Part shown: positions 1-50,770 of the stretch, in pieces
Layout of the letters: every line of letters starts with the position of its first letter
Numbering within the stretch: the stretch's first letter is position 1
DNA from: Candidatus Pacearchaeota archaeon
GTDB taxonomy: Archaea > Nanobdellota > Nanobdellia > Pacearchaeales > GW2011-AR1
Assembly (NCBI GenBank): GCA_041654895.1
Contig: JBAZCR010000002.1
Location: 8,435-72,434 of the forward strand
DNA: 64,000 bases
Direction of reading: 5' to 3'
Translations under genes and position numbers: made by a program
The notes under the pieces: model-generated
The model's database searches: none
What the model was told of the DNA's origin: nothing
What the model saw: only the letters and a program-made list of their open reading frames with translations

Positions 1-120
1 TATTATCATTGGGATGTTATCGATTGTATGCAGAAAAACAAACCTTTGAAGAGAGAATTTATGAGGTCAAGGGAAGATATTTTTAATGAACTTTATTTCA
101 AAATTTTAAAAATTCTCTAA
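1..120 (+). CDS. 3' end of an unidentified CDS (partial, runs off the window start)
   Basis: Frame 1 is open from the window edge to TAA at 118-120 (...MRSREDIFNELYFKILKIL*). No recognisable motif. Confidence 0.3.
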   Translation, partial: YYHWDVIDCMQKNKPLKREFMRSREDIFNELYFKILKIL

Positions 121-187
121 TTTATTCGGTTTATTTAAAAGATTTGTCTGTAACGAAAGAGTGATATCTCATTAAATTGACATAATC

Positions 188-195
188 TTTATATA
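188..195 (+). promoter_or_regulatory. Putative TATA box of the nrdR-nrdD-nrdG operon
   Basis: TTTATATA lies about 27 nt upstream of NrdR box 1 and 90 nt upstream of the nrdR ATG. Similar TTTAAATA/TTTATATA elements precede many genes here. Confidence 0.35.
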
Positions 196-222
196 GTATT
201 TTATTTTAGAGATTATTATCTA

Positions 223-238
223 ACACAATATATTGTAC
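223..238. promoter_or_regulatory. NrdR box 1 (operator)
   Basis: ACACAATATATTGTAC. The inner 12 bp (225-236) are a perfect palindrome. By my count it matches the NrdR-box consensus acaCwAtATaTwGtgt at 14/16 positions. Confidence 0.7.
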
Positions 239-254
239 CTAAGAGGCTTGATAG

Positions 255-270
255 ATACAACTAGTTGTGT
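255..270. promoter_or_regulatory. NrdR box 2 (operator)
   Basis: ATACAACTAGTTGTGT. The inner 12 bp (257-268) are a perfect palindrome. Its centre is 32 bp from the box 1 centre, the spacing typical of tandem NrdR boxes. Confidence 0.55.
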
Positions 271-285
271 TATTATAAAATTACA

Positions 286-729
286 ATGGAATGCCCATAT
301 TGTCAATCAACAGATACAAAAGTTACGAATAAGAGAGATAGTGAAGCTGTGACTCGTAGAAGGAGGGAATGTTTGAAGTGTGGCAAGCGTTTTACAACTT
401 ATGAAAGGGTTGAATTGGATTTAAGTGTGATTAAGAAAGATGGTAGGCGTGTTCCTTTTGATAGAGATAGGGTTTATATTAGTGTAGAAAAAAATTTACA
501 AAAAAGGCCTTTTACTACAAAGGAAATTGAGGAAATTGTAGATGACATTGTTTCTAGAATTTATCGTTCAGCAAAAGATAAGGATATTAAGAGTTCTAAA
601 ATTGGTCAAATAGTCATGGATAAATTAAAAAAAGTAGACAAGGTTGCTTATATTCGGTTTGCTGCTGTTTATAGGGATTTTGCTGATTTAGATGACTTCA
701 AAGAAGAAATAAAAAAATTAACTAATTAA
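286..729 (+). CDS. nrdR: Transcriptional repressor NrdR (zinc ribbon + ATP-cone)
   Basis: MECPYCQS...CLKCGKRFTTYE zinc ribbon followed by an ATP-cone (VIKKDGRRVPFDRDRV...AYIRFAAVYRDF). The first ATG is at 286. The track start at 265 is a TTG inside NrdR box 2. Confidence 0.9.
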   Translation: MECPYCQSTDTKVTNKRDSEAVTRRRRECLKCGKRFTTYERVELDLSVIKKDGRRVPFDRDRVYISVEKNLQKRPFTTKEIEEIVDDIVSRIYRSAKDKDIKSSKIGQIVMDKLKKVDKVAYIRFAAVYRDFADLDDFKEEIKKLTN

Positions 730-730
730 A

Positions 731-2845
731 ATGATAACAAAAGTACGTAAAAGAGATGGTGATGTAGTTGTATTTGATGAAAGTAAAATTAGTTCTGCAA
801 TTTGGAAAGCAGTAAAAGCTGTTGGTGGAAAAGATAAGGAGAGATCTGATTCTCTGGCTAAATTAGTTGTAAAAAAGTTAAACGAAAAGTTTGTAGATAA
901 TTTAATTCCAAGCGTTGAAGATGTTCAGGATATGGTTGAGTCTACTTTAATTAAAGAAGGACATGATCAAGTTGCTAAGGCTTATATTTTATATAGGAAA
1001 AGTAGAGAAGAATTAAGAGACATTAAAGGTTTATTTGACACAATAGAGGCTGTAGAGGATTATATTGGCTTAAATGATTGGATGGTAAAGGAAAACTCTA
1101 ATATGGATTATTCCTTACAGGGATTGAATAATTATATATCCACTAAAATTATTTCTAATTATTGGATGAGGAGAATTTATCCTGAAGCAATTAGGAAGGT
1201 TCATGAATCAGGTGATTTACATATTCATGATTTAGGAACACTTGGTGCATATTGTGTTGGTTGGGATTTAAAGGATTTATTAACTGTTGGTTTTAGAGGT
1301 GTTAAAGGAAAAGTCGAAAGCAAACCAGCAAAACATCTTAGAACTGCCTTAATGCAAATGGTTAATTTCTTTTATACTTTACAAGGAGAAACTGCAGGAG
1401 CTCAGGCTTTTAGTAATTTTGATAGTTTACTTGCTCCATTTATTAGATATGATAATTTAGATTATAAACAAGTAAAACAATGTATGCAAGAATTTGTTTT
1501 TAATTTAGCAGTTCCTACAAGAGTTGGTTTTCAAACCCCTTTTACAAATATTACAATGGATTTAGTTGTACCAGAATATATGAAGGAAGAATATGTTGTT
1601 ATTGGTGGTCAGATTCAGAATGAAAAGTATAAGGATTTTAAAAAAGAAATGTCTTGGATAAATAGAGCTTTTGCAGAGTGTATGCTTGAAGGAGATGCAT
1701 CAGGACGTGTTTTTACATTCCCAATCCCGACTTATAATATTACTAAAGATTTTGATTGGGATAATGAAGAATATAATCTTATTTGGGAAATGACTGCAAA
1801 GTATGGTATACCTTATTTTTCAAATTTTGTTAATTCTGATATGAGTCCTGAAGATACTCGAAGTATGTGTTGTAGGTTAAGATTAGATCAAAAAGAATTG
1901 AGGAAAAGAGGAGGGGGACTTTTTGGTGCAAATCCTCAGACAGGCTCTATAGGGGTTGTTACAATAAATATGCCTCGTTTAGGTTATATTGCTATTGATG
2001 AAAAAGATTATTTTTTTAGATTAAATCGTTTAATGGAACTTGCAAAAGAATCTTTAGAAATAAAAAGAAATACTATTGAAAAATTTACTCAAATGGGTTT
2101 ATATCCTTACTCTAAATTCTATTTGAGGCAAGTAAACCAAAGATTTAATCAATTTTGGAAAAACCATTTTTCTACTATTGGACTTTTAGGGATGAATGAA
2201 TCAATTGAGAATTTTATGCCTGGAGAGAATATTACTACAGAAAAAGGTAAATTGTTTTCTTTAAAAGTTTTAGATTTTATGAGAAGTAAATTAGAAGAAT
2301 TTCAAGAAGAAACTGGAAATATTTATAATTTAGAAGCTACTCCTGGCGAAGGTACAACTTATAGATTTGCAAGAATTGATAAACAAAAGTTTGGTAAAAT
2401 TATCTGTGCTAATGAAGAATCATATAAACAAAAAAATGCTAAACCTTATTATACTAATTCGACTCAATTGCCTGTTGATTATACTGATGATTTATTTGAT
2501 GCATTAGATTTACAAGATGACTTACAATGTAAGTATACTGGTGGAACTGTTTTTCATGCTTTTGTTGGTGAAAAGATGGATAAAGAGGGTATTAAAAAAT
2601 TAGTAAGAAAAATATCAGAAAAATATCATTTGCCTTATTTTACTATTACACCAACGTTTTCTATTTGTCCAATTCATGGTTATCTATATGGAGAGCACGA
2701 ATATTGTCCAAAATGTGATGAGGAAATTCGTTTGTCTGAGCAAGAAACTAAAAGCAAAGACGATTTGTTTTTTGAAGACGATAAATTAATAGATGAGGAA
2801 ATTTTAACAGGTTTTAAAGAAAATAAAAAGGAGGTTATATACTAA
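731..2845 (+). CDS. nrdD: Anaerobic (class III) ribonucleoside-triphosphate reductase, large piece lacking the glycyl-radical loop
   Basis: N-terminal ATP-cone (VRKRDGDVVVFDESKISSAI) and a long NrdD-like core (NLEATPGEGTTYRFA, FTITPTFSICPIHG...YCPKC zinc site). The ORF stops at TAA 2843-2845, before any RVxGY motif. Confidence 0.93.
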   Translation: MITKVRKRDGDVVVFDESKISSAIWKAVKAVGGKDKERSDSLAKLVVKKLNEKFVDNLIPSVEDVQDMVESTLIKEGHDQVAKAYILYRKSREELRDIKGLFDTIEAVEDYIGLNDWMVKENSNMDYSLQGLNNYISTKIISNYWMRRIYPEAIRKVHESGDLHIHDLGTLGAYCVGWDLKDLLTVGFRGVKGKVESKPAKHLRTALMQMVNFFYTLQGETAGAQAFSNFDSLLAPFIRYDNLDYKQVKQCMQEFVFNLAVPTRVGFQTPFTNITMDLVVPEYMKEEYVVIGGQIQNEKYKDFKKEMSWINRAFAECMLEGDASGRVFTFPIPTYNITKDFDWDNEEYNLIWEMTAKYGIPYFSNFVNSDMSPEDTRSMCCRLRLDQKELRKRGGGLFGANPQTGSIGVVTINMPRLGYIAIDEKDYFFRLNRLMELAKESLEIKRNTIEKFTQMGLYPYSKFYLRQVNQRFNQFWKNHFSTIGLLGMNESIENFMPGENITTEKGKLFSLKVLDFMRSKLEEFQEETGNIYNLEATPGEGTTYRFARIDKQKFGKIICANEESYKQKNAKPYYTNSTQLPVDYTDDLFDALDLQDDLQCKYTGGTVFHAFVGEKMDKEGIKKLVRKISEKYHLPYFTITPTFSICPIHGYLYGEHEYCPKCDEEIRLSEQETKSKDDLFFEDDKLIDEEILTGFKENKKEVIY
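2830..2835 (+). promoter_or_regulatory. Shine-Dalgarno-like GGAGGT serving the 40-codon glycyl-radical ORF
   Basis: GGAGGT lies 10 nt upstream of ATG 2846, inside the last codons of nrdD. Comparable GGAGG sites precede the ORFs at 46433 and 40396(-). Confidence 0.5.
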
Positions 2846-2968
2846 ATGGTAGAAAACAGAACAAGATGTGAAGTCTGGAGTAGAGTTTGTGGTTATTTAA
2901 GACCTACTTCACGTTGGAATGATGGAAAGCTTGAAGAATTTAGAGACAGAAAACCTTTCAAAAATTAA
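2846..2968 (+). CDS. 40-aa glycyl-radical peptide of NrdD (detached C-terminal loop; not in the supplied ORF track)
   Basis: My translation is MVENRTRCEVWSRVCGYLRPTSRWNDGKLEEFRDRKPFKN*. It contains the canonical RVxGY radical glycine motif and the WNxGKxxEFxxRK tail. The ATG directly follows the nrdD TAA, in the same frame. Confidence 0.6.
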   Translation: MVENRTRCEVWSRVCGYLRPTSRWNDGKLEEFRDRKPFKN

Positions 2969-2978
2969 TTAGATTAAA

Positions 2979-3194
2979 ATGGGAGAAAAAAATATACCAA
3001 ACAGTCTAGATAGAAATTTGAATGAATTAGAATTAATTCTAACAGATTCAATGATCTTATCAGAAAATCAAAAAAAAGATAATTCTTATGTAGAATGTAA
3101 GACACTAACTGGAAATATATACAAGGCAAAAGTTGATTTTAGTGAAATCTATCCCTTATTATTAGAACAACAGTATTATTTAGATTTTAATTGA
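2979..3194 (+). CDS. Hypothetical 71-aa protein between nrdD and nrdG
   Basis: ORF only; no motif recognised. It is tightly packed in the nrd operon, with a 3-nt gap to nrdG. Confidence 0.4.
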   Translation: MGEKNIPNSLDRNLNELELILTDSMILSENQKKDNSYVECKTLTGNIYKAKVDFSEIYPLLLEQQYYLDFN

Positions 3195-3197
3195 AAA

Positions 3198-3896
3198 ATG
3201 AAAATTTGTGGATTACAGAAAACAACATTAATAGATTTTCCAGGAAAGATAGCTTGTACTATTTTTTTAAGTAATTGCAATTTTCGATGTGGTTTTTGTT
3301 ATAATGCTGATTTAGTATTTGACAAGCTTGAATTTTTCACAGAAGAATATATTTTAGATTTTTTAGATAAAAGAAAAGACAAATTAGAAGGAGTTTGTAT
3401 TAGTGGAGGAGAACCTTTATTGACTTTAGAAAAAGATTTTGTTAAAAAAATAAAAGAGATGGGTTATCTAATAAAAATTGATACAAATGGTTCTTTTCCA
3501 GAAAAATTAAATCAATTAATTCTGGATGGGTCAGTTGATTATGTTGCTATGGATATTAAAAATTCTAGAGAAAAATATAATTTAACTTGTGGAGTTAATA
3601 TTGATTTAAAGAAGATAGAAAAATCTATTAAAATTATTTCTTCTTTAGAAAATTATGAATTTAGAACAACTATTGTATCTGATTTACACAATAATGAAGA
3701 TATTAAAAAAATTGGTGAGTGGTTATTTTCTTTAATTAATAAGAAACCAAAGAATTATTTTTTACAGGGATTTAAACATGATGGTGTTTTTATTGATGAA
3801 AAATATTCTTCTTTTTTTGACACAAAGCTAAGTGATTTGGAATTAATGAAAAAAGTTGCTTTGCCTTATTTTGAGTCTGTAAATATTCGTGTTTGA
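3198..3896 (+). CDS. nrdG: Anaerobic RNR activating enzyme (radical SAM)
   Basis: CNFRCGFCYN CxxxCxxC radical-SAM cluster motif, GGEPLL SAM-binding motif, about 230 aa, directly downstream of nrdD. Confidence 0.88.
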   Translation: MKICGLQKTTLIDFPGKIACTIFLSNCNFRCGFCYNADLVFDKLEFFTEEYILDFLDKRKDKLEGVCISGGEPLLTLEKDFVKKIKEMGYLIKIDTNGSFPEKLNQLILDGSVDYVAMDIKNSREKYNLTCGVNIDLKKIEKSIKIISSLENYEFRTTIVSDLHNNEDIKKIGEWLFSLINKKPKNYFLQGFKHDGVFIDEKYSSFFDTKLSDLELMKKVALPYFESVNIRV

Positions 3897-3936
3897 TTTT
3901 AATAAAAGTTTATAAATATTAATTCTATTTAATTTT

Positions 3937-4386
3937 ATGGTTAGAAAAAAAGGGGTAAAAGTTAATAATAAAAAGCAAGAATTAGAACTTTTATGTAAAG
4001 ATGTTTGTAAAGAAAATAGAGTCTCTCGTTCTTTTGTTGTTATTCTTTCGATTATTTCTATTTTAGGTTTTGGTTCTATTATTAGTGATAGTTTTTTTAA
4101 TTATTCTATAGAAAAGTATGTTGAATCTATTTGGTTTATTATTTTGTCAATTGGTTTTATTTTTGAGTCACATCCTAGAAAATTATTTAAGAGTATTAGA
4201 AATACAATGAATGATAAAACTTTTACTGCGATTACAACTTTTATATTAGGTAGTATTGCTTTTATTGCAGGTGTTTTTACCTTGCCTTTTTTTAATATAA
4301 CAAACCCTGCTTTTTTAGCTGTTAAAGGATTACTAAGTCTTGTAGCAATATCATTTATTATTATTCAGACATGGATAATTAGATAA
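3937..4386 (+). CDS. Hypothetical integral membrane protein
   Basis: Four hydrophobic segments (VVILSIISILGFGSII, IWFIILSIGFIF, AITTFILGSIAFIAGVF, LLSLVAISFIIIQTWII). Confidence 0.5.
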   Translation: MVRKKGVKVNNKKQELELLCKDVCKENRVSRSFVVILSIISILGFGSIISDSFFNYSIEKYVESIWFIILSIGFIFESHPRKLFKSIRNTMNDKTFTAITTFILGSIAFIAGVFTLPFFNITNPAFLAVKGLLSLVAISFIIIQTWIIR

Positions 4387-4388
4387 TT

Positions 4389-4643
4389 TTATTTAAATAG
4401 TCTTAATATTATTATTAATTCAATTAAAGCTACTGTTGTTAAAATATAGCTGCCTTTTCTAAATCTATCTTTTAAATCTTGTAATTTTTCTGCATCGTTT
4501 ATTATAGAAGAAGATTTTTCTAGAAAACTTTGGTTTTCTTGTGGGGTTTCTTGAGGCATCTTGAATAACATTGCTAATAATGTAATTCCAATTGTTAGTG
4601 TTACAATAGCAATAATTAAAAGCATAAATTTACTCCACCTCAT
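4389..4643 (-). CDS. Hypothetical small membrane protein
   Basis: N- and C-terminal hydrophobic helices (LLIIAIVTLTIGITLLAMLF; ILTTVALIELIIILRLF). Confidence 0.4.
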   Translation of the reverse strand: MRWSKFMLLIIAIVTLTIGITLLAMLFKMPQETPQENQSFLEKSSSIINDAEKLQDLKDRFRKGSYILTTVALIELIIILRLFK

Positions 4644-8845: not shown

Positions 8846-10237
8846 TTAATCAAAAATATTCTTTAAAATATTATTCCTTTTTTCTTCAGCAATACAACTT
8901 TGACAAATTTTACTATTATTCTCACTAAAACCAAAGAATTTCTCTTGTGTTAATCTATGACATTTACTACAGGCTCTTAAACAATTAAAACAAAAGTCTT
9001 CACTACTAATAAAATCTTTTCTGATATGATCATTACAAACAAAATTACCACATCCAGAACACTTTTGAATGCAATCTTTACAGAATTCTCTCCCACAAAT
9101 ATAACATTTTTTAGTTATACATCTTTCACAAATAATTTTATTACAAGAATGGCATTTTTTGATACAATTTTTACAAATTAAATGTCCTCCTGAACATAAA
9201 GTAATGTTATTTAAAGAAGAGTTACACGAATCACACCTTAAGCCTTCAAAATCTTTTGTTAAGGGATTAAAGGAAACTTGAACATTTTTCTTTATAGTTT
9301 CGTTATCTAAAAAAAGATTAAAAATAAAAATTGGATAATAAATAATTGTGGTGTTTAGTAATTTATTACTTAAATTTAAACTAAACTTTTGTTGAGCATC
9401 TTTAATGCTGAAGTTTTTTTCTTTTATGATTTTATCTTTAGATTCATTATTAGAAATTTTAATTAAATCACTTTTTAACTTGGAGATTTTAGATATCAAA
9501 ACTTCTTTTTTCTCACCTTCACTTAACCTTGCTTTTAATTCCAAATCTTTAACTTTTTCAATAGAGTTATTTAGTTCATTACTATATTCATTTAATCTCG
9601 TATTATAATATTTATTTATTCTCTCAATTTCCTTATTTAATTCTGAAGATAATTTTAAGCTTAAATCATCTTTCTTATCTTTAATTAAATTAGATAAAGA
9701 TGACTTTGCAATTTCATAATCTTTTTTTAAATTCTTAGGATTAATCTCATCTAAATTTCCTTCAATCACATTATATCCACTTAAATCACCGTCAACAACA
9801 ACTCCTTCATGAACATAGATTTCATTTATTAATTGTTCTTTCTCATTTAGAAAACAAAAAGTTGTTAAAAAACTAAATCTTGAGAAGAAATTATTTTTAT
9901 TTTTCTTAATTATATTATTAATTTTACAATTATTAAGAGACAAATACTTTTTTATTTCAACAATAGGATCAACATTAAAATCAATTTTTAATAAAGTTGT
10001 CTTTCCAACGCTGTCTAAATATTTTTCTATATATCTTAATAAACTTGAATGTTTATCTATAAAATCACAATTCTCTTTTTTTTCAATAAAACTAATTCTC
10101 AAGGGGTTTTCCTTAAAAAGTAAATCTAAAAAAGATTTTGGAATATTTTCAATAGTATAGATTTCACCTTCACAATTAATTTTACAATTTAATTTAGTAA
10201 AAAAACTAAGAACAAATTCTTTTATTTCATCAACCAT
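8846..10237 (-). CDS. Hypothetical protein: N-terminal globular domain, central coiled coil, C-terminal array of CxxC zinc-ribbon-like motifs
   Basis: The C-terminal ~130 aa carry at least 10 CxxC pairs (CDSCN...CKNCIKKCHSCNKIICERCITKKCYICGREFCKDCIQKCSGCGNFVC...CFNCLRACSKCH...CQSC). The middle is heptad-like and K/E/L/S-rich. Confidence 0.6.
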   Translation of the reverse strand: MVDEIKEFVLSFFTKLNCKINCEGEIYTIENIPKSFLDLLFKENPLRISFIEKKENCDFIDKHSSLLRYIEKYLDSVGKTTLLKIDFNVDPIVEIKKYLSLNNCKINNIIKKNKNNFFSRFSFLTTFCFLNEKEQLINEIYVHEGVVVDGDLSGYNVIEGNLDEINPKNLKKDYEIAKSSLSNLIKDKKDDLSLKLSSELNKEIERINKYYNTRLNEYSNELNNSIEKVKDLELKARLSEGEKKEVLISKISKLKSDLIKISNNESKDKIIKEKNFSIKDAQQKFSLNLSNKLLNTTIIYYPIFIFNLFLDNETIKKNVQVSFNPLTKDFEGLRCDSCNSSLNNITLCSGGHLICKNCIKKCHSCNKIICERCITKKCYICGREFCKDCIQKCSGCGNFVCNDHIRKDFISSEDFCFNCLRACSKCHRLTQEKFFGFSENNSKICQSCIAEEKRNNILKNIFD

Positions 10238-10279
10238 CTTAGAAAAAATAAAACTTTGTTTTTAACTATTATGATTGGG
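10229..10279 (-). repeat. 51-bp promoter/start element, copy 1 (identical to 21964..22014)
   Basis: ATCAACCATCTTAGAAAAAATAAAACTTTGTTTTTAACTATTATGATTGGG is identical at both loci by direct comparison. On the minus strand it supplies an AT-rich TATA-like stretch plus ATG GTT GAT (MVD). Confidence 0.9.
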
Positions 10280-10288
10280 AGATTGATG

Positions 10289-10316
10289 GTAGACAGTTTA
10301 CGGTTTACTGTTCACA
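10289..10316. repeat. Heptad array A (GTAGACA GTTTACG GTTTACT GTTCACA)
   Basis: Four phased 7-mers of form GTnnACn sit in the 96-bp gap between the LamG-1 stop and the 51-bp element. The block is GC-richer than the surrounding DNA. Confidence 0.8.
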
Positions 10317-10333: not shown

Positions 10334-12439
10334 TTACCATCGTCCTTTTTCATATAAAAGCTTAACTTCTTCGTTAGATAATTCTCTATTCCAGATTTTT
10401 ATATTGGATAATTGTCCATTTAAATAATACTGACTAGATGTTGAGTCTCTACCTATGTATAGCAAACTTGGACCAATACTATCTAAAGGTACATTCTCGA
10501 TAGTGGTTGTGTCCATTAATGTACCATCAATATATAATTTCATCCCCGTACCCGATTTTCTTGTTATTGTTATGTGTTTTAGCTCGTTAAGAGGCATAAT
10601 ATAAGAAGTTGTCCATCTGTATACACCCGCATGTTTTCCATAATCGATAGCAACTTTTTGTCCATATATAAAAACAAAAAGACTTGGATCTCCTCCACCC
10701 GTAGTAATCCTTTTAGTTAAAAATGCTGTTGCTGTTGGGCTATATGATAATACTCTTGTATAAAATGATATGGTTCCATCATCTAATGTATTTATTATTT
10801 GATTATCGCTTGTTATATAATCATTTACTCCGTCAAACACTGCCCCCTCATTTGTTATATTCACACCATTCATTAAAGTCCCATCATTTCCATACGGCGT
10901 CCTATCCGAAACTATCGTGCTTGACTTCATCCATTTTGTCGTCAATGGCATATCCAATATTAATCCTTTGTTTAAATTTCCTACACTTGCTTCTTTTGGT
11001 TTGTAAGAATCAAAAAGTAATTTTATTTCGTCTTCTGAAAGAGCTCGATTGTAAATACGAACATCGGAGATTGAGCCATCAGAATAATAAGTATTCCCAC
11101 CACCAATCACAAGATTATTCGTAACAGTTGTTGGATTTTTACAATTTGTATTTTCTTTTGTATCTTTTACACCATCAATATAAATATTCGCCTTTTGTAA
11201 TTCCTGATTATAAACGCCAACTATGTGATACCAAGTATTTGTAGATAATATTGTTTGGCTATCTAATTCTATACTGTTTGAAAAGGTACCTTTAAAACGA
11301 ACTTTATTCCCGTAGGTTGACAATACATAATTATTGCTAAACCATGAGCCGCTTGTACCTTTTGAAACAAATGTTGAATATGAGCCAAAAGAGTTCATCT
11401 TTACCCATACTGAAATGGTAAAACTACCAGTAAGCCCATTTACATTGCCATAATTTATATAATCATTACTTCCATCAAAACTTGTCGCTCCGTTGCTTTT
11501 GCCTTTTCTATCCTCAACTCCACCGATTGTAATCCCTCCTTGTGCTATTCCGTGATTTCCATAAGGAGTTAGGTCTTTTGCACCGTTTTCTGCATCTAGC
11601 ATCCAGTGTCCGACTAGCCCTTTGTTTAAATCAGATGTTGAAGCTATTGGCTTGTAAGAATTAAAAAGTAATTTTATTTCGTCTTCACTAAGAGCTCGAT
11701 TGTAAATACGGACGTCGGAAATTGAACCTTTAAAAGCTATTTTTCTATCAGGTCTTAAATCTCCTATTGAAATATAATTTTGAGATATTGTATTACCCGC
11801 AATAAAGCTTTTATCTAAAACTCCATTTATGTAAATTTTTGATTCTCCTCCCTTAGTTGCTGATACCACTAAATTAACCCATACTCCAACAGAAAGATTA
11901 TCATAATTAGATTCTTCAAATGAACTAGTAGACGGAGAATAAGTATAAACTCTGAATTTAGTTCCTCTTACTAAAAACCAAATAGGATATGTTTTAGATG
12001 GAGAAGATGCGATAATGGTCCTACCATAATCCTCTATGATATCTAAACTGCTTGGTTTTAACCATACTGAAACAGTATAATCATCCCCATAAGTTAAATC
12101 TGCAGAAATAACATCATCTACTCCATCAAAATTTGTCGCTCCGCCACTTTTGCCTTTTCTATCTTCTGCTCCGCCAATTGTAACTCCGCCTTGTCCTGTT
12201 CCGTGGTTTCCATATGGAGTTAAATCTTTTGCGCCGTTTTCAGCATCCAACATCCAGTGTCCGACTAAACCTTTCTCTAATGAGGATACTTTTGTTGTAT
12301 TTATCCCAAAAAATCCTGTTGCTATGGTTACAGCGACAAAAGAAATTAATAAGATAGAAATAATTATCAATACTATGAGGTGTTTATGGTTTACTGTATA
12401 CTGTTTACTGCCAACCGTTAACCCTTTACCTCCCCCCAT
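10334..12439 (-). CDS. Membrane-anchored surface protein with multiple LamG/concanavalin-A-like lectin domains (LamG-1)
   Basis: Repeated modules run from FDG(V/S)(D/N)DYI, through a (V/A)W(V/L/I)K strand, to SISDVRIYNRALSEDEIKLLF. N-terminal signal anchor LIVLIIISILLISFVAVTIATGFF. The first ATG is at 12439; the track start at 12457 is a TTG. Confidence 0.7.
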   Translation of the reverse strand: MGGGKGLTVGSKQYTVNHKHLIVLIIISILLISFVAVTIATGFFGINTTKVSSLEKGLVGHWMLDAENGAKDLTPYGNHGTGQGGVTIGGAEDRKGKSGGATNFDGVDDVISADLTYGDDYTVSVWLKPSSLDIIEDYGRTIIASSPSKTYPIWFLVRGTKFRVYTYSPSTSSFEESNYDNLSVGVWVNLVVSATKGGESKIYINGVLDKSFIAGNTISQNYISIGDLRPDRKIAFKGSISDVRIYNRALSEDEIKLLFNSYKPIASTSDLNKGLVGHWMLDAENGAKDLTPYGNHGIAQGGITIGGVEDRKGKSNGATSFDGSNDYINYGNVNGLTGSFTISVWVKMNSFGSYSTFVSKGTSGSWFSNNYVLSTYGNKVRFKGTFSNSIELDSQTILSTNTWYHIVGVYNQELQKANIYIDGVKDTKENTNCKNPTTVTNNLVIGGGNTYYSDGSISDVRIYNRALSEDEIKLLFDSYKPKEASVGNLNKGLILDMPLTTKWMKSSTIVSDRTPYGNDGTLMNGVNITNEGAVFDGVNDYITSDNQIINTLDDGTISFYTRVLSYSPTATAFLTKRITTGGGDPSLFVFIYGQKVAIDYGKHAGVYRWTTSYIMPLNELKHITITRKSGTGMKLYIDGTLMDTTTIENVPLDSIGPSLLYIGRDSTSSQYYLNGQLSNIKIWNRELSNEEVKLLYEKGRW
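12382..12430. repeat. Heptad array B (7 phased units) inside the first ~20 codons of LamG-1
   Basis: GTTTATG GTTTACT GTATACT GTTTACT GCCAACC GTTAACC CTTTACC. Confidence 0.8.
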
Positions 12440-12463
12440 CTCTGCATAATAATGCAAAGGTGC

Positions 12464-17241: not shown

Positions 17242-17290
17242 GTTTATTGTTTACCGTTGACTGTCGACAGTTCACGGTTTACTGTTTACC
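17242..17290. repeat. Heptad array C (7 perfectly phased units) abutting the LamG-2 stop codon
   Basis: GTTTATT GTTTACC GTTGACT GTCGACA GTTCACG GTTTACT GTTTACC. It contains the palindrome ACTGTCGACAGT, and the last unit overlaps the stop codon at 17286-17288. Confidence 0.85.
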
Positions 17291-19787
17291 ATCGTCCTTT
17301 TTCATATAAAAGTTTGACTTCTTCGTCGGACAAAGCACGATTATAGACTTTGATGTTAGAAATAGAACCATTAATATGTTCTTGAATACTAGAATATCCT
17401 ATGTTAATATTACTTGTTGTTGATCTAATAGGTCCACCACTTGAAGATTTTGAATTATCAAAATTACCATCTACGTAAACTTTACCAATAACTCCATTAT
17501 AAGTGGCAACTACATGACGCCATTCATTATTGTTTAAAGTATTTAAACTTTGAAGATGACTAAGTAAGTCCCATGTGGTTGCTGAATTTTGAGATAAACT
17601 GAAGTCCAATTTATTACTATATAATTCAAAGCAATAAGATCTCCCATTCCATGTTTTTAATAATATAACTCTATAACCACTTCCAAAATTATTACTTTTT
17701 ATCCATGCTGAAATTGTTAATTCATTAGCCAAATTTAAAGAATCACTATTAGATATGTTCATTCCCCCATTCACTCCATCAAACACTGCCCCTTCATTCG
17801 TTACATTTACACCATTCCTTAAAGTCCCATCATTTCCATACGGCGTCCTATCTGAAACAATCGTATTTGATTTCATATATTTTGTCGTCAATGGCATATC
17901 CAATATTAATCCTTTGTTTAAATTTCCTACACTTGCTTCTTTTGGTTTGTAAGAATCAAAAAGTAATTTTATTTCATCTTCAGATAATGCACGGTTGTAA
18001 ATACGGACGTCGGAGATTGAACCGCTAAAAAACTGCCAACCACTTGTACCACTAAATCGCAAATTATAACCAGTGTTACCAATTAAAAAATCCCCATAAC
18101 TAGTTTTTGAATTAGAAAAATCTAAATAACAAGACATAATCCCTCTATTAAATATACAAACCAAATGATGCCAATTATTATCTTGGGGATATGATAGAAC
18201 TACATTATGTCTAGTACCACTTGATTCATATGTATCAAAATAAATTGTTTTAGTATCAGCGTAACTTATAGCCCATCCATAATTTCCAGGAGATGATAAA
18301 CCTGCTCCTTTACGAACTACTTCATGATGGTTATTTAAATCATTAATTTTAAACCAAACAGATACAGAAAATATATCCTTCATTTGTAAAATATTAGGAT
18401 TGCCGCAATCAATATAATCATCAACCCCATCAAAATTTGTCGCTCCGTCGCTTTTTCCTTTTCTGTCTTCTACTCCACCTATCGTAATTCCGCCTTGTGC
18501 TGTTCCATGGTTTCCATATGGAGTTAAATCTTTTGCACCGTTTTCTGTATCTAGCATCCAATGCCCAACCAAACCCTTATTTAAATCAGATATTGAAGCT
18601 GTTGGCTTGTAAGATTCATAAAGTAATTTTATTTCGTCTTCACTAAGAGCTCGATTGTAAATACGAACATCGGAAATTGAGCCTTTTAAAAATTCTGCAT
18701 CATAACGACTTCCAATTCTTAAATAATTTGGATCATAAGATATTTCACCCGTTGTGTCAAAAACACTGTCTAAAATACCATTTACATAAATTTCTATTTT
18801 ATTATTAGGAGATATGATAAAAATAAGATTATACCACTCATTAAGATTTAATGTAGTTTGACCCATCCAACTTTTCCATGTCCCACCAGTTGTAGCGAAG
18901 ATATATGGTTTCATATTACTGCCAATAACAGAACCAAATTGTCTAGTAGAAGTTCTACCAACAGAATTTTGTAATAAGGCTTGCCAATTACCAGTTGCAG
19001 AGTCTAATTTAATCCATAAACTTTGGGTGAATTCAGAAGACATATCTAATTTTCCATCATGAAAAATTTCTATATAATCATCAACCCCATCAAAACTATA
19101 TGCTCTGTTTGGCTCTCCTTTTACTCCTGTTGTTAGGGTTGCCCCGTAGTTTGTTCCGTGATTTGAATATGGAGTTATGTCTTGAATATCAATTTCTGAA
19201 ATATAAATAGAATTTATAATCATATCAATATCTACACTACCGACATTGTCTATTAACAATTTTTTATTAGCTGTAGAATAAATATAAAAGGAGTGTTTTC
19301 CGGTCTGTTTTAATAAGTAGCCGCCTTGGTTTTGAGGACCTGCTATAGCACTACCATAATTAACTATACAATCTATTGTAACCTTATAATACTTATTTGC
19401 AGAAAGATATGCGGAACTAGATATAATGTATGAATCCACACCGACTCCTTTTAAGTTTGGCTTGCCAGAAGTCCAGTCAGTATTTACAGATGCCCAACCA
19501 GAGGAGCTACCAAAAGTGGTATTTAGAACTAAGTTTTTTACTGCTTCGCTTTCTCCGTCTAATGGGTAGTGTGCTACTAAACCTTTCTCTAATGAAGATA
19601 CTTTTGTTGTATTTATCCCAAAAAATCCAGTTGCTATGGTTACAGCGACAAAAGAAATTAATAAGACAGAAATAATTATTAATACTATGAGGTGTTTACG
19701 GTTTACGGTCAAATTGTCTGTTAACTGTTTACTGTCAACAGTAGACCGCTTACGGATCCAATATATTTTTTTAGAATTTATTTCCAT
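17286..19787 (-). CDS. Membrane-anchored surface protein with multiple LamG/concanavalin-A-like lectin domains (LamG-2)
   Basis: Same anchor as LamG-1 (LIVLIIISVLLISFVAVTIATGFF) and four modules ending in SISDVRIYNRALSEDEIKLL(Y/F). Long stretches are about 85-95% identical in DNA to LamG-1. Confidence 0.7.
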   Translation of the reverse strand: MEINSKKIYWIRKRSTVDSKQLTDNLTVNRKHLIVLIIISVLLISFVAVTIATGFFGINTTKVSSLEKGLVAHYPLDGESEAVKNLVLNTTFGSSSGWASVNTDWTSGKPNLKGVGVDSYIISSSAYLSANKYYKVTIDCIVNYGSAIAGPQNQGGYLLKQTGKHSFYIYSTANKKLLIDNVGSVDIDMIINSIYISEIDIQDITPYSNHGTNYGATLTTGVKGEPNRAYSFDGVDDYIEIFHDGKLDMSSEFTQSLWIKLDSATGNWQALLQNSVGRTSTRQFGSVIGSNMKPYIFATTGGTWKSWMGQTTLNLNEWYNLIFIISPNNKIEIYVNGILDSVFDTTGEISYDPNYLRIGSRYDAEFLKGSISDVRIYNRALSEDEIKLLYESYKPTASISDLNKGLVGHWMLDTENGAKDLTPYGNHGTAQGGITIGGVEDRKGKSDGATNFDGVDDYIDCGNPNILQMKDIFSVSVWFKINDLNNHHEVVRKGAGLSSPGNYGWAISYADTKTIYFDTYESSGTRHNVVLSYPQDNNWHHLVCIFNRGIMSCYLDFSNSKTSYGDFLIGNTGYNLRFSGTSGWQFFSGSISDVRIYNRALSEDEIKLLFDSYKPKEASVGNLNKGLILDMPLTTKYMKSNTIVSDRTPYGNDGTLRNGVNVTNEGAVFDGVNGGMNISNSDSLNLANELTISAWIKSNNFGSGYRVILLKTWNGRSYCFELYSNKLDFSLSQNSATTWDLLSHLQSLNTLNNNEWRHVVATYNGVIGKVYVDGNFDNSKSSSGGPIRSTTSNINIGYSSIQEHINGSISNIKVYNRALSDEEVKLLYEKGRW
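19694..19754. repeat. Heptad array D (3 + 5 units with a 5-nt phase break) inside the first ~30 codons of LamG-2
   Basis: GTTTACG GTTTACG GTCAAAT tgtct GTTAACT GTTTACT GTCAACA GTAGACC GCTTACG. It contains TACTGT-CA-ACAGTA. Confidence 0.8.
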
Positions 19788-20175: not shown

Positions 20176-21972
20176 TTAGGAAACAGATTCATCTAGGAAA
20201 TCGCTAGTTGCTTTTTTGCTATCTTCATAATTTTTCATTCCTTCTTCAATTATGCTAGCAATTTTATTAATATCTTTACTGAAAAGATCTAAGTTTCCTT
20301 TTGAATCTATAAATGCACTCATTATTTTCTCTTCAATTTTATTTCTTCCAAAAGTTCTTCCTTCAGAATCAAGACCTAAATTAAATAAAATAATCGGCAA
20401 CTCTCCAATAACTAAACCAACACAGCACATTTTATTAATAATTAAATCTACAACACTTTCTTCCATAGTTCCTTTTGTTGCAAAAGAATAAACATAAATA
20501 TCTCTTTTTTGACCAATCCTATCTAATCTACCTATTCTCTGCTCAACACTCATTGGATTCCAAGGCAAATCATAATTAATTAAATTCCTACAAAATTGAA
20601 AATTCAAACCTTCAGCACCAGTATCAGTGGAAATTAAAATATCTACATTTTGATTCTTAAATTGGTTGATTCTTTCTGATTTTTCTTCTCTACTTAAACC
20701 GCCTATAAATTCAATAATTTTCAAATTAAATGGTTTTAACCTTTCCACAATATATTTTAGTGTAGTTGGGTGTCTAGTATAAATTAAAATTTTCTCGTCG
20801 TTACTTTTACTTCTAATCTCTTTAACGACTTCAAGAAGTTTTTCTATTTTACTATCTTGCTTTAAATTTTCATAATCATTGAGAATTTCTTGAGCTAAAT
20901 TTTTTGTGTTCTGATGATACTTATCACTATTAACAATACCTTGAAGAGTTTCCATTGCAGATTTAGAAGAACTAGTAATTTTAGGTAGTAGTGAATAAAT
21001 CACAAGTCTTCCATTAATTTCATTTCCATCAAATCTAAAATAATTTTCTTTTAATAATGAAACAATATTCTCATAAATTATTTTTTCCTCTTTTGTTAAA
21101 TCAACACTGATAATTTTAGGAATTCGTTTTTTGTATTCTATTCCAGTTTCATCTCTTCTTCTTCGAATCATAACTTCATCTAATCTCTTTTTTAATTCAG
21201 TTGGATTTAATGGATATCTTTTATTTCCTTTATGTAAAAATTTAGACCTAAACTCTTTGATTGTGCCTAAATGACCTCTTTTTAATAAATTCAAGAGATT
21301 ATATAACTCAAGTAAATCATTTTGAAAGGGTGTTGCAGTCAGTAATAAAAACCTCTTTTTTTGTAATTTGTCTACAAACCTCCATCTAACAGTATTTTTC
21401 TCTTTTAATTTATGAGCTTCGTCTACAATAACTAAATCCCAACTAAAATCATGAGCTTTTTTATGTCTAAATTCTCTTAAGTTTTTATTATAAATTTTAA
21501 CCCTGTCAATTGAAGCAATAACAAAATTATATTTGTCCCAATCATTAGAAGATTCGATAATATTAAAATTCAAATTAAATTTCTCTTTTAATTCTTCAAC
21601 CCATTGATTTACTAAACTTGGTGGAGTTAAAATTAAACATTTTTTAAAAAAGCCTCTTATAATTCCTTCTTTTAATACAAAACCAGTTGTAATTGTTTTA
21701 CCTAAACCCACTTCGTCAGCCAATAAACCTGTTGAATTTAAATCTTTAATCAAATGTAGTGCTCCTTCCTTTTGATGAGGCAAATCATACATTAAATTTT
21801 TCTTAACTAAATCATAACTTAATAAATTATCAACAAAATTATCTATTTTTATTTCTTCAGAGTATTTTTTTAATTCTAAAATTTCAGGACTATCAAATGA
21901 AGGAAGTGAATCAATATTTTCAAATAAAGAAAAATCTTCTTCAAAATCCTCATTAATTATTAAATCAACCAT
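20176..21972 (-). CDS. SNF2-family helicase/ATPase (COG0553, RapA/HepA-like)
   Basis: Motif I ADEVGLGKT, motif II VIVDEAHKLK, LLLTATPFQN, helicase-C with QRIGRLDRIGQ. Confidence 0.88.
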   Translation of the reverse strand: MVDLIINEDFEEDFSLFENIDSLPSFDSPEILELKKYSEEIKIDNFVDNLLSYDLVKKNLMYDLPHQKEGALHLIKDLNSTGLLADEVGLGKTITTGFVLKEGIIRGFFKKCLILTPPSLVNQWVEELKEKFNLNFNIIESSNDWDKYNFVIASIDRVKIYNKNLREFRHKKAHDFSWDLVIVDEAHKLKEKNTVRWRFVDKLQKKRFLLLTATPFQNDLLELYNLLNLLKRGHLGTIKEFRSKFLHKGNKRYPLNPTELKKRLDEVMIRRRRDETGIEYKKRIPKIISVDLTKEEKIIYENIVSLLKENYFRFDGNEINGRLVIYSLLPKITSSSKSAMETLQGIVNSDKYHQNTKNLAQEILNDYENLKQDSKIEKLLEVVKEIRSKSNDEKILIYTRHPTTLKYIVERLKPFNLKIIEFIGGLSREEKSERINQFKNQNVDILISTDTGAEGLNFQFCRNLINYDLPWNPMSVEQRIGRLDRIGQKRDIYVYSFATKGTMEESVVDLIINKMCCVGLVIGELPIILFNLGLDSEGRTFGRNKIEEKIMSAFIDSKGNLDLFSKDINKIASIIEEGMKNYEDSKKATSDFLDESVS

Positions 21973-22014
21973 CTTAGAAAAAATAAAACTTTGTTTTTAA
22001 CTATTATGATTGGG
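21964..22014 (-). repeat. 51-bp promoter/start element, copy 2 (identical to 10229..10279)
   Basis: Exact match over 51 bp including the ATG GTT GAT of the SNF2 gene. Identity collapses to about 60% immediately beyond it. Confidence 0.9.
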
Positions 22015-22016
22015 CA

Positions 22017-22051
22017 GTTGACGGTGGGTGTTTGACTGTCGGCAGTTCACC
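22017..22051. repeat. Heptad array E (GTTGACG GTGGGTG TTTGACT GTCGGCA GTTCACC) upstream of the SNF2 gene
   Basis: Five phased units in the same orientation and at the same position relative to the 51-bp element as array A, but with no LamG gene attached. Confidence 0.75.
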
Positions 22052-50206: not shown

Positions 50207-50770
50207 ATGAAGGGGTTGATTGATTCTTTTGGAATTTTAAGAGATTTTAATATTGCTAAATTTTTTATTGTTGAATCTTCTTCTGATTTAAATAAATTAA
50301 AATTTCCTTATTATATGAAAATAGATTCTGAAAAACATAAATTAAATTTAGGGGGAGTTTTATTTTGTAAAGATTTAGAAGAGGCTGAAAAGAATTATAA
50401 ACTTTTAAGAAATAAATTTAGTGAAAGGATTGTAATTCAAGAAGAGATTAAAGGAATAGAGTTAATATTAGGTATAAAAAAAGATGATATTTTCGGATTT
50501 GTTTTAATGCTTGGATTTGGTGGGAGTAAACTTTCTAAAGAGGGTATAACTTTTAGAGTTTTAAAATTAAATAGAAGTGAAATTAATAATGCTTTAAATG
50601 AATTTGATAAAGATATACTAAAAAAATATGTATATAAGGAAAAGTTAATTAGCTTTATTGAGATGATTTGTTTTTTAGCTGAAAAAAAAAATATTAAAGA
50701 AATGGATTTAAATCCTATAATCTTATCTAGTAAAGGACCTTTTATTGTTGATGCAAGAATTAAAATTTAA
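50207..50770 (+). CDS. acdB: ADP-forming acetyl-CoA synthetase, beta (ATP-grasp) subunit
   Basis: ATP-grasp_5-like pattern: YYMKIDSEKHKLNLGGV, LILGIKKDDIFGFVLMLGFGG, EMDLNPIIL...VDARIKI. Confidence 0.7.
   Translation: MKGLIDSFGILRDFNIAKFFIVESSSDLNKLKFPYYMKIDSEKHKLNLGGVLFCKDLEEAEKNYKLLRNKFSERIVIQEEIKGIELILGIKKDDIFGFVLMLGFGGSKLSKEGITFRVLKLNRSEINNALNEFDKDILKKYVYKEKLISFIEMICFLAEKKNIKEMDLNPIILSSKGPFIVDARIKI

Follow-up and report, generated by a model that had tools for sequence, protein, structure and literature searches.

Can an enzyme that works by means of a glycyl radical be assembled from two polypeptides, the one bearing the catalytic barrel and the other the radical glycine? The question is raised by the nrdD locus in a stretch of 64,000 nucleotides (nt) of contig JBAZCR010000002.1 from a Candidatus Pacearchaeota archaeon (the whole of this stretch is referred to below as the window). 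There, the gene for the anaerobic, i.e. class III, ribonucleotide reductase (RNR) ends before the glycyl-radical loop, and that loop is encoded by a small open reading frame (ORF) that starts at the very next codon. Glycyl-radical enzymes are defined by the presence of the radical glycine on the chain of the catalytic barrel, the only known exception being GrcA/Y06I of pyruvate formate-lyase, and reviewers have asked whether other glycyl-radical enzymes own a spare part too. An earlier note, made from the letters of the window, had offered three explanations: a two-polypeptide RNR with a separate radical-bearing mini-peptide, programmed readthrough, or a base-call error. The first of these is now supported by relatives that have the same split, by selection and by the separate start codons of the small ORF. 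We consider it very probable, on the basis of comparative sequence data, that the large ORF (hereafter core) and the small ORF (hereafter mini) specify an obligate two-subunit class III RNR in which the radical subunit acts in trans. The split is found in an essential DNA-precursor enzyme and is widespread in the DPANN archaea and in the bacteria of the Candidate Phyla Radiation (CPR), groups that make up a large and little understood share of anoxic ecosystems. Related loci and proteins are referred to by the labels L001-L172 and P0008-P0253, respectively, where they need to be told apart.

Layout of the nrdD locus

All of the parts that the earlier note had read from the letters are present, i.e. 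the large ORF with its ATP-cone, catalytic core and zinc site, running into an acidic tail and a TAA without any radical glycine, and the in-frame ATG behind it that opens a 40-codon ORF with its own upstream GGAGGT. The features of the locus, with the profile matches that identify them, are the following.

286-729, + strand: nrdR, transcriptional repressor with a zinc ribbon and an ATP-cone (TIGR00244, E 8.4e-46; Pfam Zn_ribbon_NrdR and ATP-cone)
731-2845, + strand: nrdD large subunit (core), 704 amino acids (aa) (Pfam NRDD positions 1-529 of 562, E 4.6e-181; NF006126, 1044 bits)
2666-2716, + strand: zinc-ribbon site CPIHGYLYGEHEYCPKC, residues 646-662, read from the sequence; the last structural element kept in the core
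2717-2842, + strand: acidic core tail DEEIRLSEQETKSKDDLFFEDDKLIDEEILTGFKENKKEVIY, 42 residues (15 D/E, 7 K/R), carrying the Shine-Dalgarno (SD) sequence of the mini at its 3' end
2830-2835, + strand: SD sequence GGAGGT, inside the last codons of the core (..KEV..), 10 nt before the ATG of the mini
2843-2845, + strand: stop codon TAA of the core, preserved in the closest relative (L001) despite an adjoining 5-nt insertion or deletion
2846-2968, + strand: mini (nrdD small subunit), 40 aa, MVENRTRCEVWSRVCGYLRPTSRWNDGKLEEFRDRKPFKN, with its ATG in the frame of the core (Pfam NRDD positions 530-561, E 7.9e-11)
2979-3194, + strand: ORF71, 71 aa, between mini and nrdG (no Pfam or NCBIfam match)
3198-3896, + strand: nrdG, radical S-adenosylmethionine activase (TIGR02495 NrdG2, E 2.3e-53), located directly downstream of the mini in split loci

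The core comprises an ATP-cone (residues 4-93), an alpha/beta barrel and a zinc ribbon, and lacks the glycyl-radical loop. Its finger-loop cysteines Cys380 and Cys381 (nt 1868-1873) occupy columns that are invariant or near-invariant in an alignment of fused homologues (A4, see below), and its C..H...C..C zinc pattern is common to split and fused relatives. The mini consists, in this order, of Met-Val-Glu-Asn, the segment RTRCEVWS, the RVCGY loop and a C-terminal helix (WNDGKLEEFRDR), and its predicted radical glycine is Gly16 (nt 2891-2893). The 562 positions of the NRDD profile are partitioned cleanly, with 1-529 on the core and 530-561 on the mini, so that the two fit together exactly, to a degree far above what chance would give; the NCBIfam models NF006126 and TIGR02487 partition likewise, and the score of NF006126 on the core lies far above its cutoff (1044 versus 548 bits). 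Judged by the features that define the NrdD family (PF13597 / TIGR02487 / NF006126), the locus has the barrel with the finger-loop cysteines, the zinc site and a nearby NrdG, whereas the RVxG[YF] motif, which by definition belongs on the barrel's own chain, sits as RVCGY in the following ORF. Core and mini together thus possess every NrdD feature, in an architecture that departs from the family definition.

The fit is equally precise at the junction. Exactly 8 residues separate the last cysteine of the zinc site from the arginine of RVxGY in every fused relative in which the distance was measurable, i.e. in which the zinc site matched the pattern (11 of the 13 fused loci from GTDB and 117 of the 120 homologues of the fused L014). 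As the mini contains the 8-mer RTRCEVWS, the two pieces make up a complete NrdD and the core tail is extra sequence. This tail has a homologue in L001 alone among the related loci and is lineage-specific, and it is modelled with low confidence. A search of the same 117 and 11 measurable relatives for fused intermediates in which the linker is long found none. The cysteine that precedes EV(Y/W)S was considered as a tether specific to the split form (which could, for instance, join the zinc site) and rejected, as it is present in 91 of the 117 fused relatives, which are those closest to the main split clade.

The gene order nrdR-core-mini-nrdG is kept across related loci, and nrdR lies directly 5' of the core in most of them. 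The ORF finder places the start of nrdR at the TTG at position 265, and the family match begins at Met8, which corresponds to the ATG at 286. ORF71 was considered as a third component and rejected: it was seen only in L001 (65% identity), its ratio of nonsynonymous to synonymous substitution rates (dN/dS) is 0.35 and it matches no family. It probably does not belong to the system, and may be a lineage-specific gene that is young or evolves fast, or no gene at all. No second copy of the mini was found in the 64-kb window.

The translation signals set the mini apart from its surroundings. A 5-mer SD sequence within 25 nt of the start was found for two of 48 window genes, i.e. the mini at 2846 and a gene at 50207 (the set is headed as the 48 window ORFs of at least 120 aa, with the mini counted among the two). 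The archaeon thus seems to initiate translation mostly without an SD sequence, and because such sequences are rare in the window, the GGAGGT of the mini stands out. Among the split loci described below, all 11 DPANN loci have an SD-like motif before the mini and none of the 12 CPR or unclassified loci does, the latter having longer, AT-rich spacers. The location of the SD sequence in the last codons of the core accounts for the recurrent '...KEV' and '...GGE/GGD' endings of tails that are otherwise unrelated. The abutting TAA and ATG suggest translational coupling combined with an unusually strong initiation site. A scan of positions 1-4600 for sigma-70 promoters, i.e. with a bacterial model on archaeal DNA, gave 34 promoter-like sites versus 27 expected, and a terminator scan of the same region found none.

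Occurrence and conservation of the split

GTDB was scanned with one genome per species, which yielded 80 related loci, and the region of the zinc site and the glycine motif were located in each. In 23 loci (the window and 22 from GTDB) the gene is split, in all cases directly after the zinc ribbon. These loci belong to Nanoarchaeota, Woesearchaeota, Aenigmatarchaeota and Micrarchaeota (DPANN), to Moranbacteria, Dojkabacteria and other Patescibacteria (CPR), and to a few unclassified bins. Relative to the core, minis are found in frames 0, +1 and +2, at distances that range from an overlap of up to 35 nt to a spacer of up to 110 nt, and the core ends in TAA, TAG or TGA. Every mini has its own start codon, which is ATG except for a GTG in L023. 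One of the loci, L011 (DATMYW010000045.1, labelled Candidatus Fimivivens sp.), is nearly identical in its nrdD region to those of the Moranbacteria L009, L010 and L013 and may have been mis-binned.

Both core and mini are under strong purifying selection. For seven pairs of relatives the dN/dS of the mini (Nei-Gojobori) ranges from 0.026 to 0.072, and between the window and L001 the values are 0.037 for nrdR, 0.038 for the body of the core, 0.054 for its tail, 0.067 for the mini, 0.109 for nrdG and 0.353 for ORF71.

The same picture emerges from protein collections at large. In a collection of 5.8 billion proteins, 18 homologues of the mini were found, all of them standalone proteins of 39-70 aa. 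A profile built from these was scored against 1.84 billion representatives of 50%-identity clusters and gave 4,980 matches at E <= 1e-3, with 2,301 at E <= 1e-10. The best 150 of the 4,980 are 41-123 aa long, begin with methionine in 141 cases and in no case carry upstream core sequence, so that they are not fragments from contig ends. On the side of the core, the 120 closest homologues (at least 75% identity) were inspected: 119 of the 120 have a tail of 12-126 aa and low complexity behind the zinc site, and the glycine motif was found in none. Since neither the core of the window nor its 120 nearest homologues have a glycyl-radical domain (GRD), the mini of the operon is obligate. In public annotation the cores appear as 'ribonucleoside triphosphate reductase', a name that omits the missing radical site, and the minis fall under gene-calling cut-offs, are unnamed or labelled 'hypothetical protein', or are themselves named as reductase.

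Variants of both pieces were encountered. The minis of the Moranbacteria type (L009:3262-3522, L010-L013, L012:5056-5334; also L149, L169 and P0053) are 86-92 aa long and carry a CxxC...CxxC module that resembles a zinc ribbon (NRDD from position 509), while their cores keep the zinc site. In a BLASTP alignment that begins at the 'LPYF…CxxC' strand, one of them is in register with a fused C-terminus, a weak hint that these minis arose when the 3' end was partially duplicated in tandem and the upstream glycine loop was then lost. A further group of standalone minis (L112-L114, L155, L161, L163, L164, P0031, P0046 and P0080) shares the extension G(N/D)L(V/I)L.DGT(V/I)IP before the RTRCEV strand. 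The cores of some relatives are interrupted by inteins (LAGLIDADG, PF14528/PF14527), namely P0234, P0253 (~1,056 aa), L015:955-3993, L030:3001-5943 and L100, the last of which combines an intein-bearing core with a detached mini.

Unlinked copies on viruses and mobile elements

The genomic context was checked for six standalone minis. Three lie next to a core: P0012 in an nrdR-core-mini-nrdG operon that is syntenic with the window as far as the archaeal threonyl-tRNA synthetase (ThrRS) gene, P0008 in the order nrdR-MazG-core-mini, and P0016 with the core directly upstream. P0017 is found on four contigs, flanked by glycosyltransferase genes. P0013 resides on an 8.6-kb contig together with a primase-helicase, a CopG-like repressor, a DnaA-like protein and a tyrosine integrase, and P0009 stands beside a RecE/YqaJ-type exonuclease (E 6e-37), an HNH endonuclease and two phage protein families. 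Positions of standalone minis are, for instance, L085:4001-4186 (within L084-L087), L088:3104-3244 (an element with integrase and primase-helicase) and L089:3854-3985; the viral set comprises L093-L172.

This viral set was obtained by scoring IMG/VR with the mini profile, which matched 388 stretches; the best 80 were classified and checked with profile hidden Markov models. Among these 80, in a collection that may include misclassified host DNA, 70 are standalone minis with neither an NrdD core nor NrdG encoded in the flanking sequence available, and 52 of the 70 have more than 2.5 kb of upstream sequence. The rest are 8 fused viral NrdDs, one split operon with an intein-bearing core and one C-terminal fragment of 153 aa. 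Two of the orphan minis clearly belong to tailed viruses: L099 is accompanied by a terminase large subunit (E 6e-26), a portal protein (8e-25) and a helicase, and L122 by a baseplate wedge protein (E 1e-46), other baseplate proteins and a DNA polymerase. The neighbours of L095 and L126 gave no informative family matches. The minis of L093 and L094 are identical to P0009 and 75% identical to that of the window.

A virus-borne gene for a glycine loop of 40-80 residues would make sense mainly if its product acts in trans, together with core and activase from genes that lie elsewhere, and the viral orphans may be auxiliary genes comparable to Y06I of phage T4. The 153-aa fragment mentioned above (L166:7638-8117) consists of the last part of the barrel, the zinc ribbon and the glycine loop, with no upstream core in its ORF, and recalls the unspliced 91-aa nrdD fragment of the Jug phages that is discussed at the end.

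Structural compatibility of the two pieces

Core and mini were modelled as one concatenated chain with AlphaFold2, by use of the alignment A4 of 82 fused homologues, local tests having shown that fused rows alone give the correct gap. Two other routes were abandoned: modelling without an alignment gave a mean predicted local distance difference test score (pLDDT) of 34 and was unusable, and a mixed MAFFT alignment of fused sequences, split cores and minis (A3) was misaligned, with the glycine strand cut between SRVV and GY, and was discarded. The model obtained with A4 has a pLDDT of 81 and a predicted template modelling (TM) score of 0.76, values that speak to the compatibility of the pieces and not to their affinity. 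Tail residues 674-701 stay below a pLDDT of 50, and the conserved part of the mini reaches 81-92. In this model the mini forms a β-hairpin (713-718 / 721-724) with Gly720 (i.e. Gly16 of the mini) at its tip, followed by a helix (730-738). Such a modelled hairpin with the glycine at the tip is the canonical geometry of the radical loop. The best matches in the PDB according to Foldseek are class III RNRs (9D3X with E 1e-32; 4U3E and 8P2S with target-normalised TM scores of ~0.71).

In the NrdD of P. copri the GRD, composed of the zinc site, the glycine loop and the tail, was described as a mobile unit, the order of which is governed by the ATP-cone (PMC11226230). According to this definition, the natural cut falls inside the GRD.

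Recoding, error and joining

Programmed readthrough, the second explanation of the earlier note, is one form of recoding (besides frameshifting and ribosomal bypass) by which the two ORFs would be fused into one canonical NrdD. The window by itself invites this idea, as both ORFs are in the same frame with only the TAA between them, readthrough would give a contiguous protein and AlphaFold was able to model the contiguous chain. The relatives contradict it. The combination of a conserved frame relationship and a junction signal, by which programmed recoding is known, is not found across them; instead, their minis occur in frames 0, +1 and +2, at -35 to +110 nt and after all three stop codons, so that no single mechanism fits. 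The alignment of related nrdD loci that the earlier note had put forward as a check is telling in this respect: the closest relative, L001 (95% aa identity), keeps the same stop, GGAGGT and ATG, but five inserted nt (AAAAG) separate its TAA from its ATG and break the frame. Given this insertion and the variety of frames, spacings and stops, no model of readthrough, frameshifting or bypass fits the data. In addition, TAA ends 33 of the 42 long ORFs of the window and is therefore an ordinary stop here, while reading it as a sense codon would make the ORFs of the window overlap massively; every mini has its own start codon (in DPANN together with a conserved SD sequence); and minis exist that are unlinked to any core. 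Readthrough as a general mechanism is excluded by these observations, and recoding of whatever kind to yield one chain is very improbable.

A lone in-frame stop in AT-rich metagenomic sequence (the window has 27% GC) is also the typical signature of an error, so that a mistake in sequencing or assembly, or a gene that has only recently become a pseudogene, had to be considered. Eight further database clusters from several sources, 87-95% identical to the core, are however also exactly 704 aa long, the identical mini is recorded on 6 contigs, the split recurs in 22 related GTDB loci as well as in all 120 nearest core homologues, and the strong purifying selection on both pieces is not that of decaying sequence. 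The base-call error, the third of the explanations in the earlier note, is thereby excluded, and artefact or decay in general retains hardly any probability. Just as negligible is the chance that the products are joined after translation, by trans-splicing of a split intein, or at the level of RNA, by a group I intron. There are precedents for both, given the LAGLIDADG inteins within the NrdD cores of P0234 and P0253 and the phage nrdD genes that are broken by introns and homing endonucleases (PMC12880540). Against such joining stands the fact that the core tails (6-46 aa) and the extensions of the DPANN minis before RVxGY (10-22 aa) are variable, do not match inteins and are too short for a split intein, and that the two ORFs abut in the window (0 nt) and stand no more than 110 nt apart in other loci. 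Family scans detected no intein domain in core tail or mini, and an Rfam scan of the whole window returned two tRNAs only and no intron.

Origin of the split

A neighbour-joining tree was made of 40 core sequences (Kimura distances over 654 columns, 200 bootstraps) and rooted on NrdDs of 25-30% identity; as the gene transfers horizontally, such a tree is a first approximation only. The split sequences do not form a single clade (bootstrap 0%). The split Micrarchaeota sequence L023 groups with the fused L025 of Methanosarcinales (100%), the split L024 and L028 group with the fused L026 (97%), and the main split group of DPANN and CPR includes the fused L014 and L029 (92.5%). The simplest reading is that the gene was split on at least three independent occasions. 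The alternative would be one fission followed by many re-fusions, and no re-fused form is seen among the close homologues.

In this archaeon and in other DPANN loci, NrdR is encoded directly upstream of nrdD. NrdR is typically a bacterial regulator. The window itself is marked as archaeal by a ThrRS editing domain, an RNA polymerase of the Rpb1/Rpb2 type and the elongation factor aEF-2. The core tree mixes sequences of DPANN, CPR and free-living bacteria, which points to horizontal transfer of the nrdR-nrdD-nrdG cassette as a whole.

Could the split be functional and yet selectively neutral, i.e. a fission that was fixed by drift in reduced genomes and has no role in repair or exchange? Such an origin would leave the mechanism of the two-subunit enzyme as it is and concerns only the reason why the split exists. 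Split genes are common in DPANN and CPR lineages, and it is precisely there that the split of nrdD is concentrated. Moreover, the core tails are variable, of low complexity and modelled with low confidence, as expected of unselected read-on sequence, and no adaptation specific to the split was found in the mini, given that the cysteine before EV(Y/W)S is shared with 91 of 117 fused relatives. On the other hand, the bootstrapped tree indicates at least three origins, the split persists over deep divergence without a re-fused form among the 120 nearest homologues, and the fact that viruses and mobile elements carry orphan minis implies that the GRD peptide is of value in its free form. A neutral origin is a real possibility, to which we would give not quite an even chance.

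A probable two-subunit enzyme and its possible use

The two-subunit enzyme would work as follows. The genes nrdR, nrdD, mini and nrdG would be transcribed as one messenger, from which the mini would be translated separately by virtue of its own strong SD sequence and the ATG that abuts the TAA of the core. The core would supply the allosteric sites, the barrel, the thiyl cysteine and the zinc ribbon, and the mini the radical glycine. The mini would dock non-covalently in the barrel, at the place where the attached loop sits in an ordinary NrdD, NrdG would abstract a hydrogen from its Gly16, and from then on catalysis would follow the course of an ordinary NrdD, in which the radical is handed from glycine to cysteine and on to the substrate. 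Of this picture, the data show the structure of the genes, their conservation, the purifying selection on them, the recurrence of the split, the structural compatibility of the pieces and the occurrence of unlinked copies on viruses and mobile elements; non-covalent assembly, activation by NrdG and enzyme activity are steps that we infer.

Several points weigh against the two-subunit enzyme as pictured here. To keep the radical buried, a peptide of 40 residues has to bind tightly, and in the version of the window no device dedicated to tethering was found. The use of a concatenated chain and of an alignment of the fused type biases the model towards the fused geometry. The flanks of the viral and mobile minis extend over at most 8 kb, and a core could lie elsewhere on those genomes. 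The genomes with a split nrdD may likewise encode a second, fused NrdD or an RNR of another class elsewhere. Finally, the split can be explained equally well by the neutral gene fission that is common in reduced DPANN genomes.

What could be gained by detaching the radical domain? Oxygen cleaves glycyl-radical proteins at the radical glycine (PMC13450708), and after such cleavage only a 40-mer would have to be remade instead of an enzyme of 700 residues. That detachment serves to make the oxygen-labile carrier of the radical replaceable is a speculative thought, which we hold to be possible at odds clearly short of even; the recurrence of the split, the strong SD sequence and the viral copies fit it. 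It can be extended, tentatively and with about the same reserve, to the notion of the mini as an exchangeable radical cofactor that would be charged by NrdG, plugged into cores that lack a GRD and replaced after oxygen damage. Because the mini would work in trans, viruses and mobile elements could carry a copy of their own to sustain or take over the synthesis of deoxyribonucleoside triphosphates in the host. If the mini is indeed an exchangeable cofactor, it would represent the class III RNR counterpart of GrcA/T4 Y06I, albeit one that is obligate for the host and has arisen on three or more occasions among ultra-small archaea and bacteria. Independent of such use, the split system is well suited to the study of how the activase recognises the loop, how the radical domain enters and leaves the barrel, and whether oxygen damage can be repaired by a swap of subunits, all of them questions that fused enzymes make difficult to address.

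Other features of the window

The - strand of the window encodes two paralogous large proteins (10334-12457 and 17286-19787) with three Laminin_G_3 (concanavalin-A-like lectin) domains each, which share DNA segments of 73-91% identity about 7 kb apart and are probably duplicated surface or adhesion genes. A 94-nt repeat with 82% identity (10222-10315 / 21957-22050) is found upstream of the genes at 8846-10237 and at 20176-21972, the latter encoding an SNF2 helicase.

Comparison with known systems

The obvious reference is the canonical class III system NrdD/NrdG, as known from phage T4, E. coli, T. maritima, P. copri and S. thermophilus (structures 1H7A, 4U3E, 8P23 and 9D3X). The locus of the window shares with it the ATP-cone, the finger-loop cysteines in the barrel, the zinc ribbon, the RVxGY hairpin, the C-terminal helix, the adjacent activase and nrdR. 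It differs in that the glycine hairpin and the C-terminal helix constitute a separate product, whereas the zinc site stays on the core and the core has gained a variable tail. The earlier note knew of no described NrdD with a detached radical domain, and this agrees with the literature: a search for a split NrdD architecture, in a library that falls short of covering all journals, found no description.

The earlier note had also likened the mini to GrcA/YfiD, the spare part of pyruvate formate-lyase, and this comparison holds as an analogy but not as family membership. Like GrcA/YfiD and T4 Y06I, the mini is a small standalone protein with a glycyl-radical domain (40 aa with its own SD sequence and ATG; 39-123 aa in relatives), for which charging by the activase and complementation in trans are presumed by analogy, and like Y06I it has virus-borne copies. 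GrcA, however, backs up an enzyme that has a GRD of its own, whereas the operon mini is the only GRD that its core has and therefore does not back up a GRD-bearing parent. The sequence families differ as well: GrcA (~127 aa) belongs to Pfam Gly_radical (PF01228), and when matches to this family (PF01228 / IPR011140) were sought in eight minis at E-values up to 1, none was found, the minis matching NRDD (PF13597) only. A review of glycyl-radical enzymes from 2026 states that formate lyases alone are known to have spare-part proteins (PMC13450708), and a paper from 2021 speculated that further spare parts may exist (PMC8683613).

Two other systems resemble the locus in the way the gene is divided. 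The class II RNR NrdJa/NrdJb of Pseudomonas aeruginosa and relatives is likewise encoded by two adjacent ORFs, with a cut towards the C-terminus and extra C-terminal sequence on the large piece (PMC9669993), but it belongs to the adenosylcobalamin-dependent class, and its small piece, far larger than 40 aa, consists of a folded IscU-like and zinc-finger domain that is involved in re-reduction and does not provide the radical cofactor. In the fragmented nrdD genes of phages (the T4 intron and the Jug jumbo phages) the coding sequence also comes in several pieces, and one nrdD junction of the Jug phages, between fragments of 230 and 91 aa, is without evidence of splicing (PMC12880540). The gaps in these phage genes hold mobile elements and are mostly mended by splicing, whereas in the archaeal locus no element intervenes between the two pieces and the mini has translation signals of its own.

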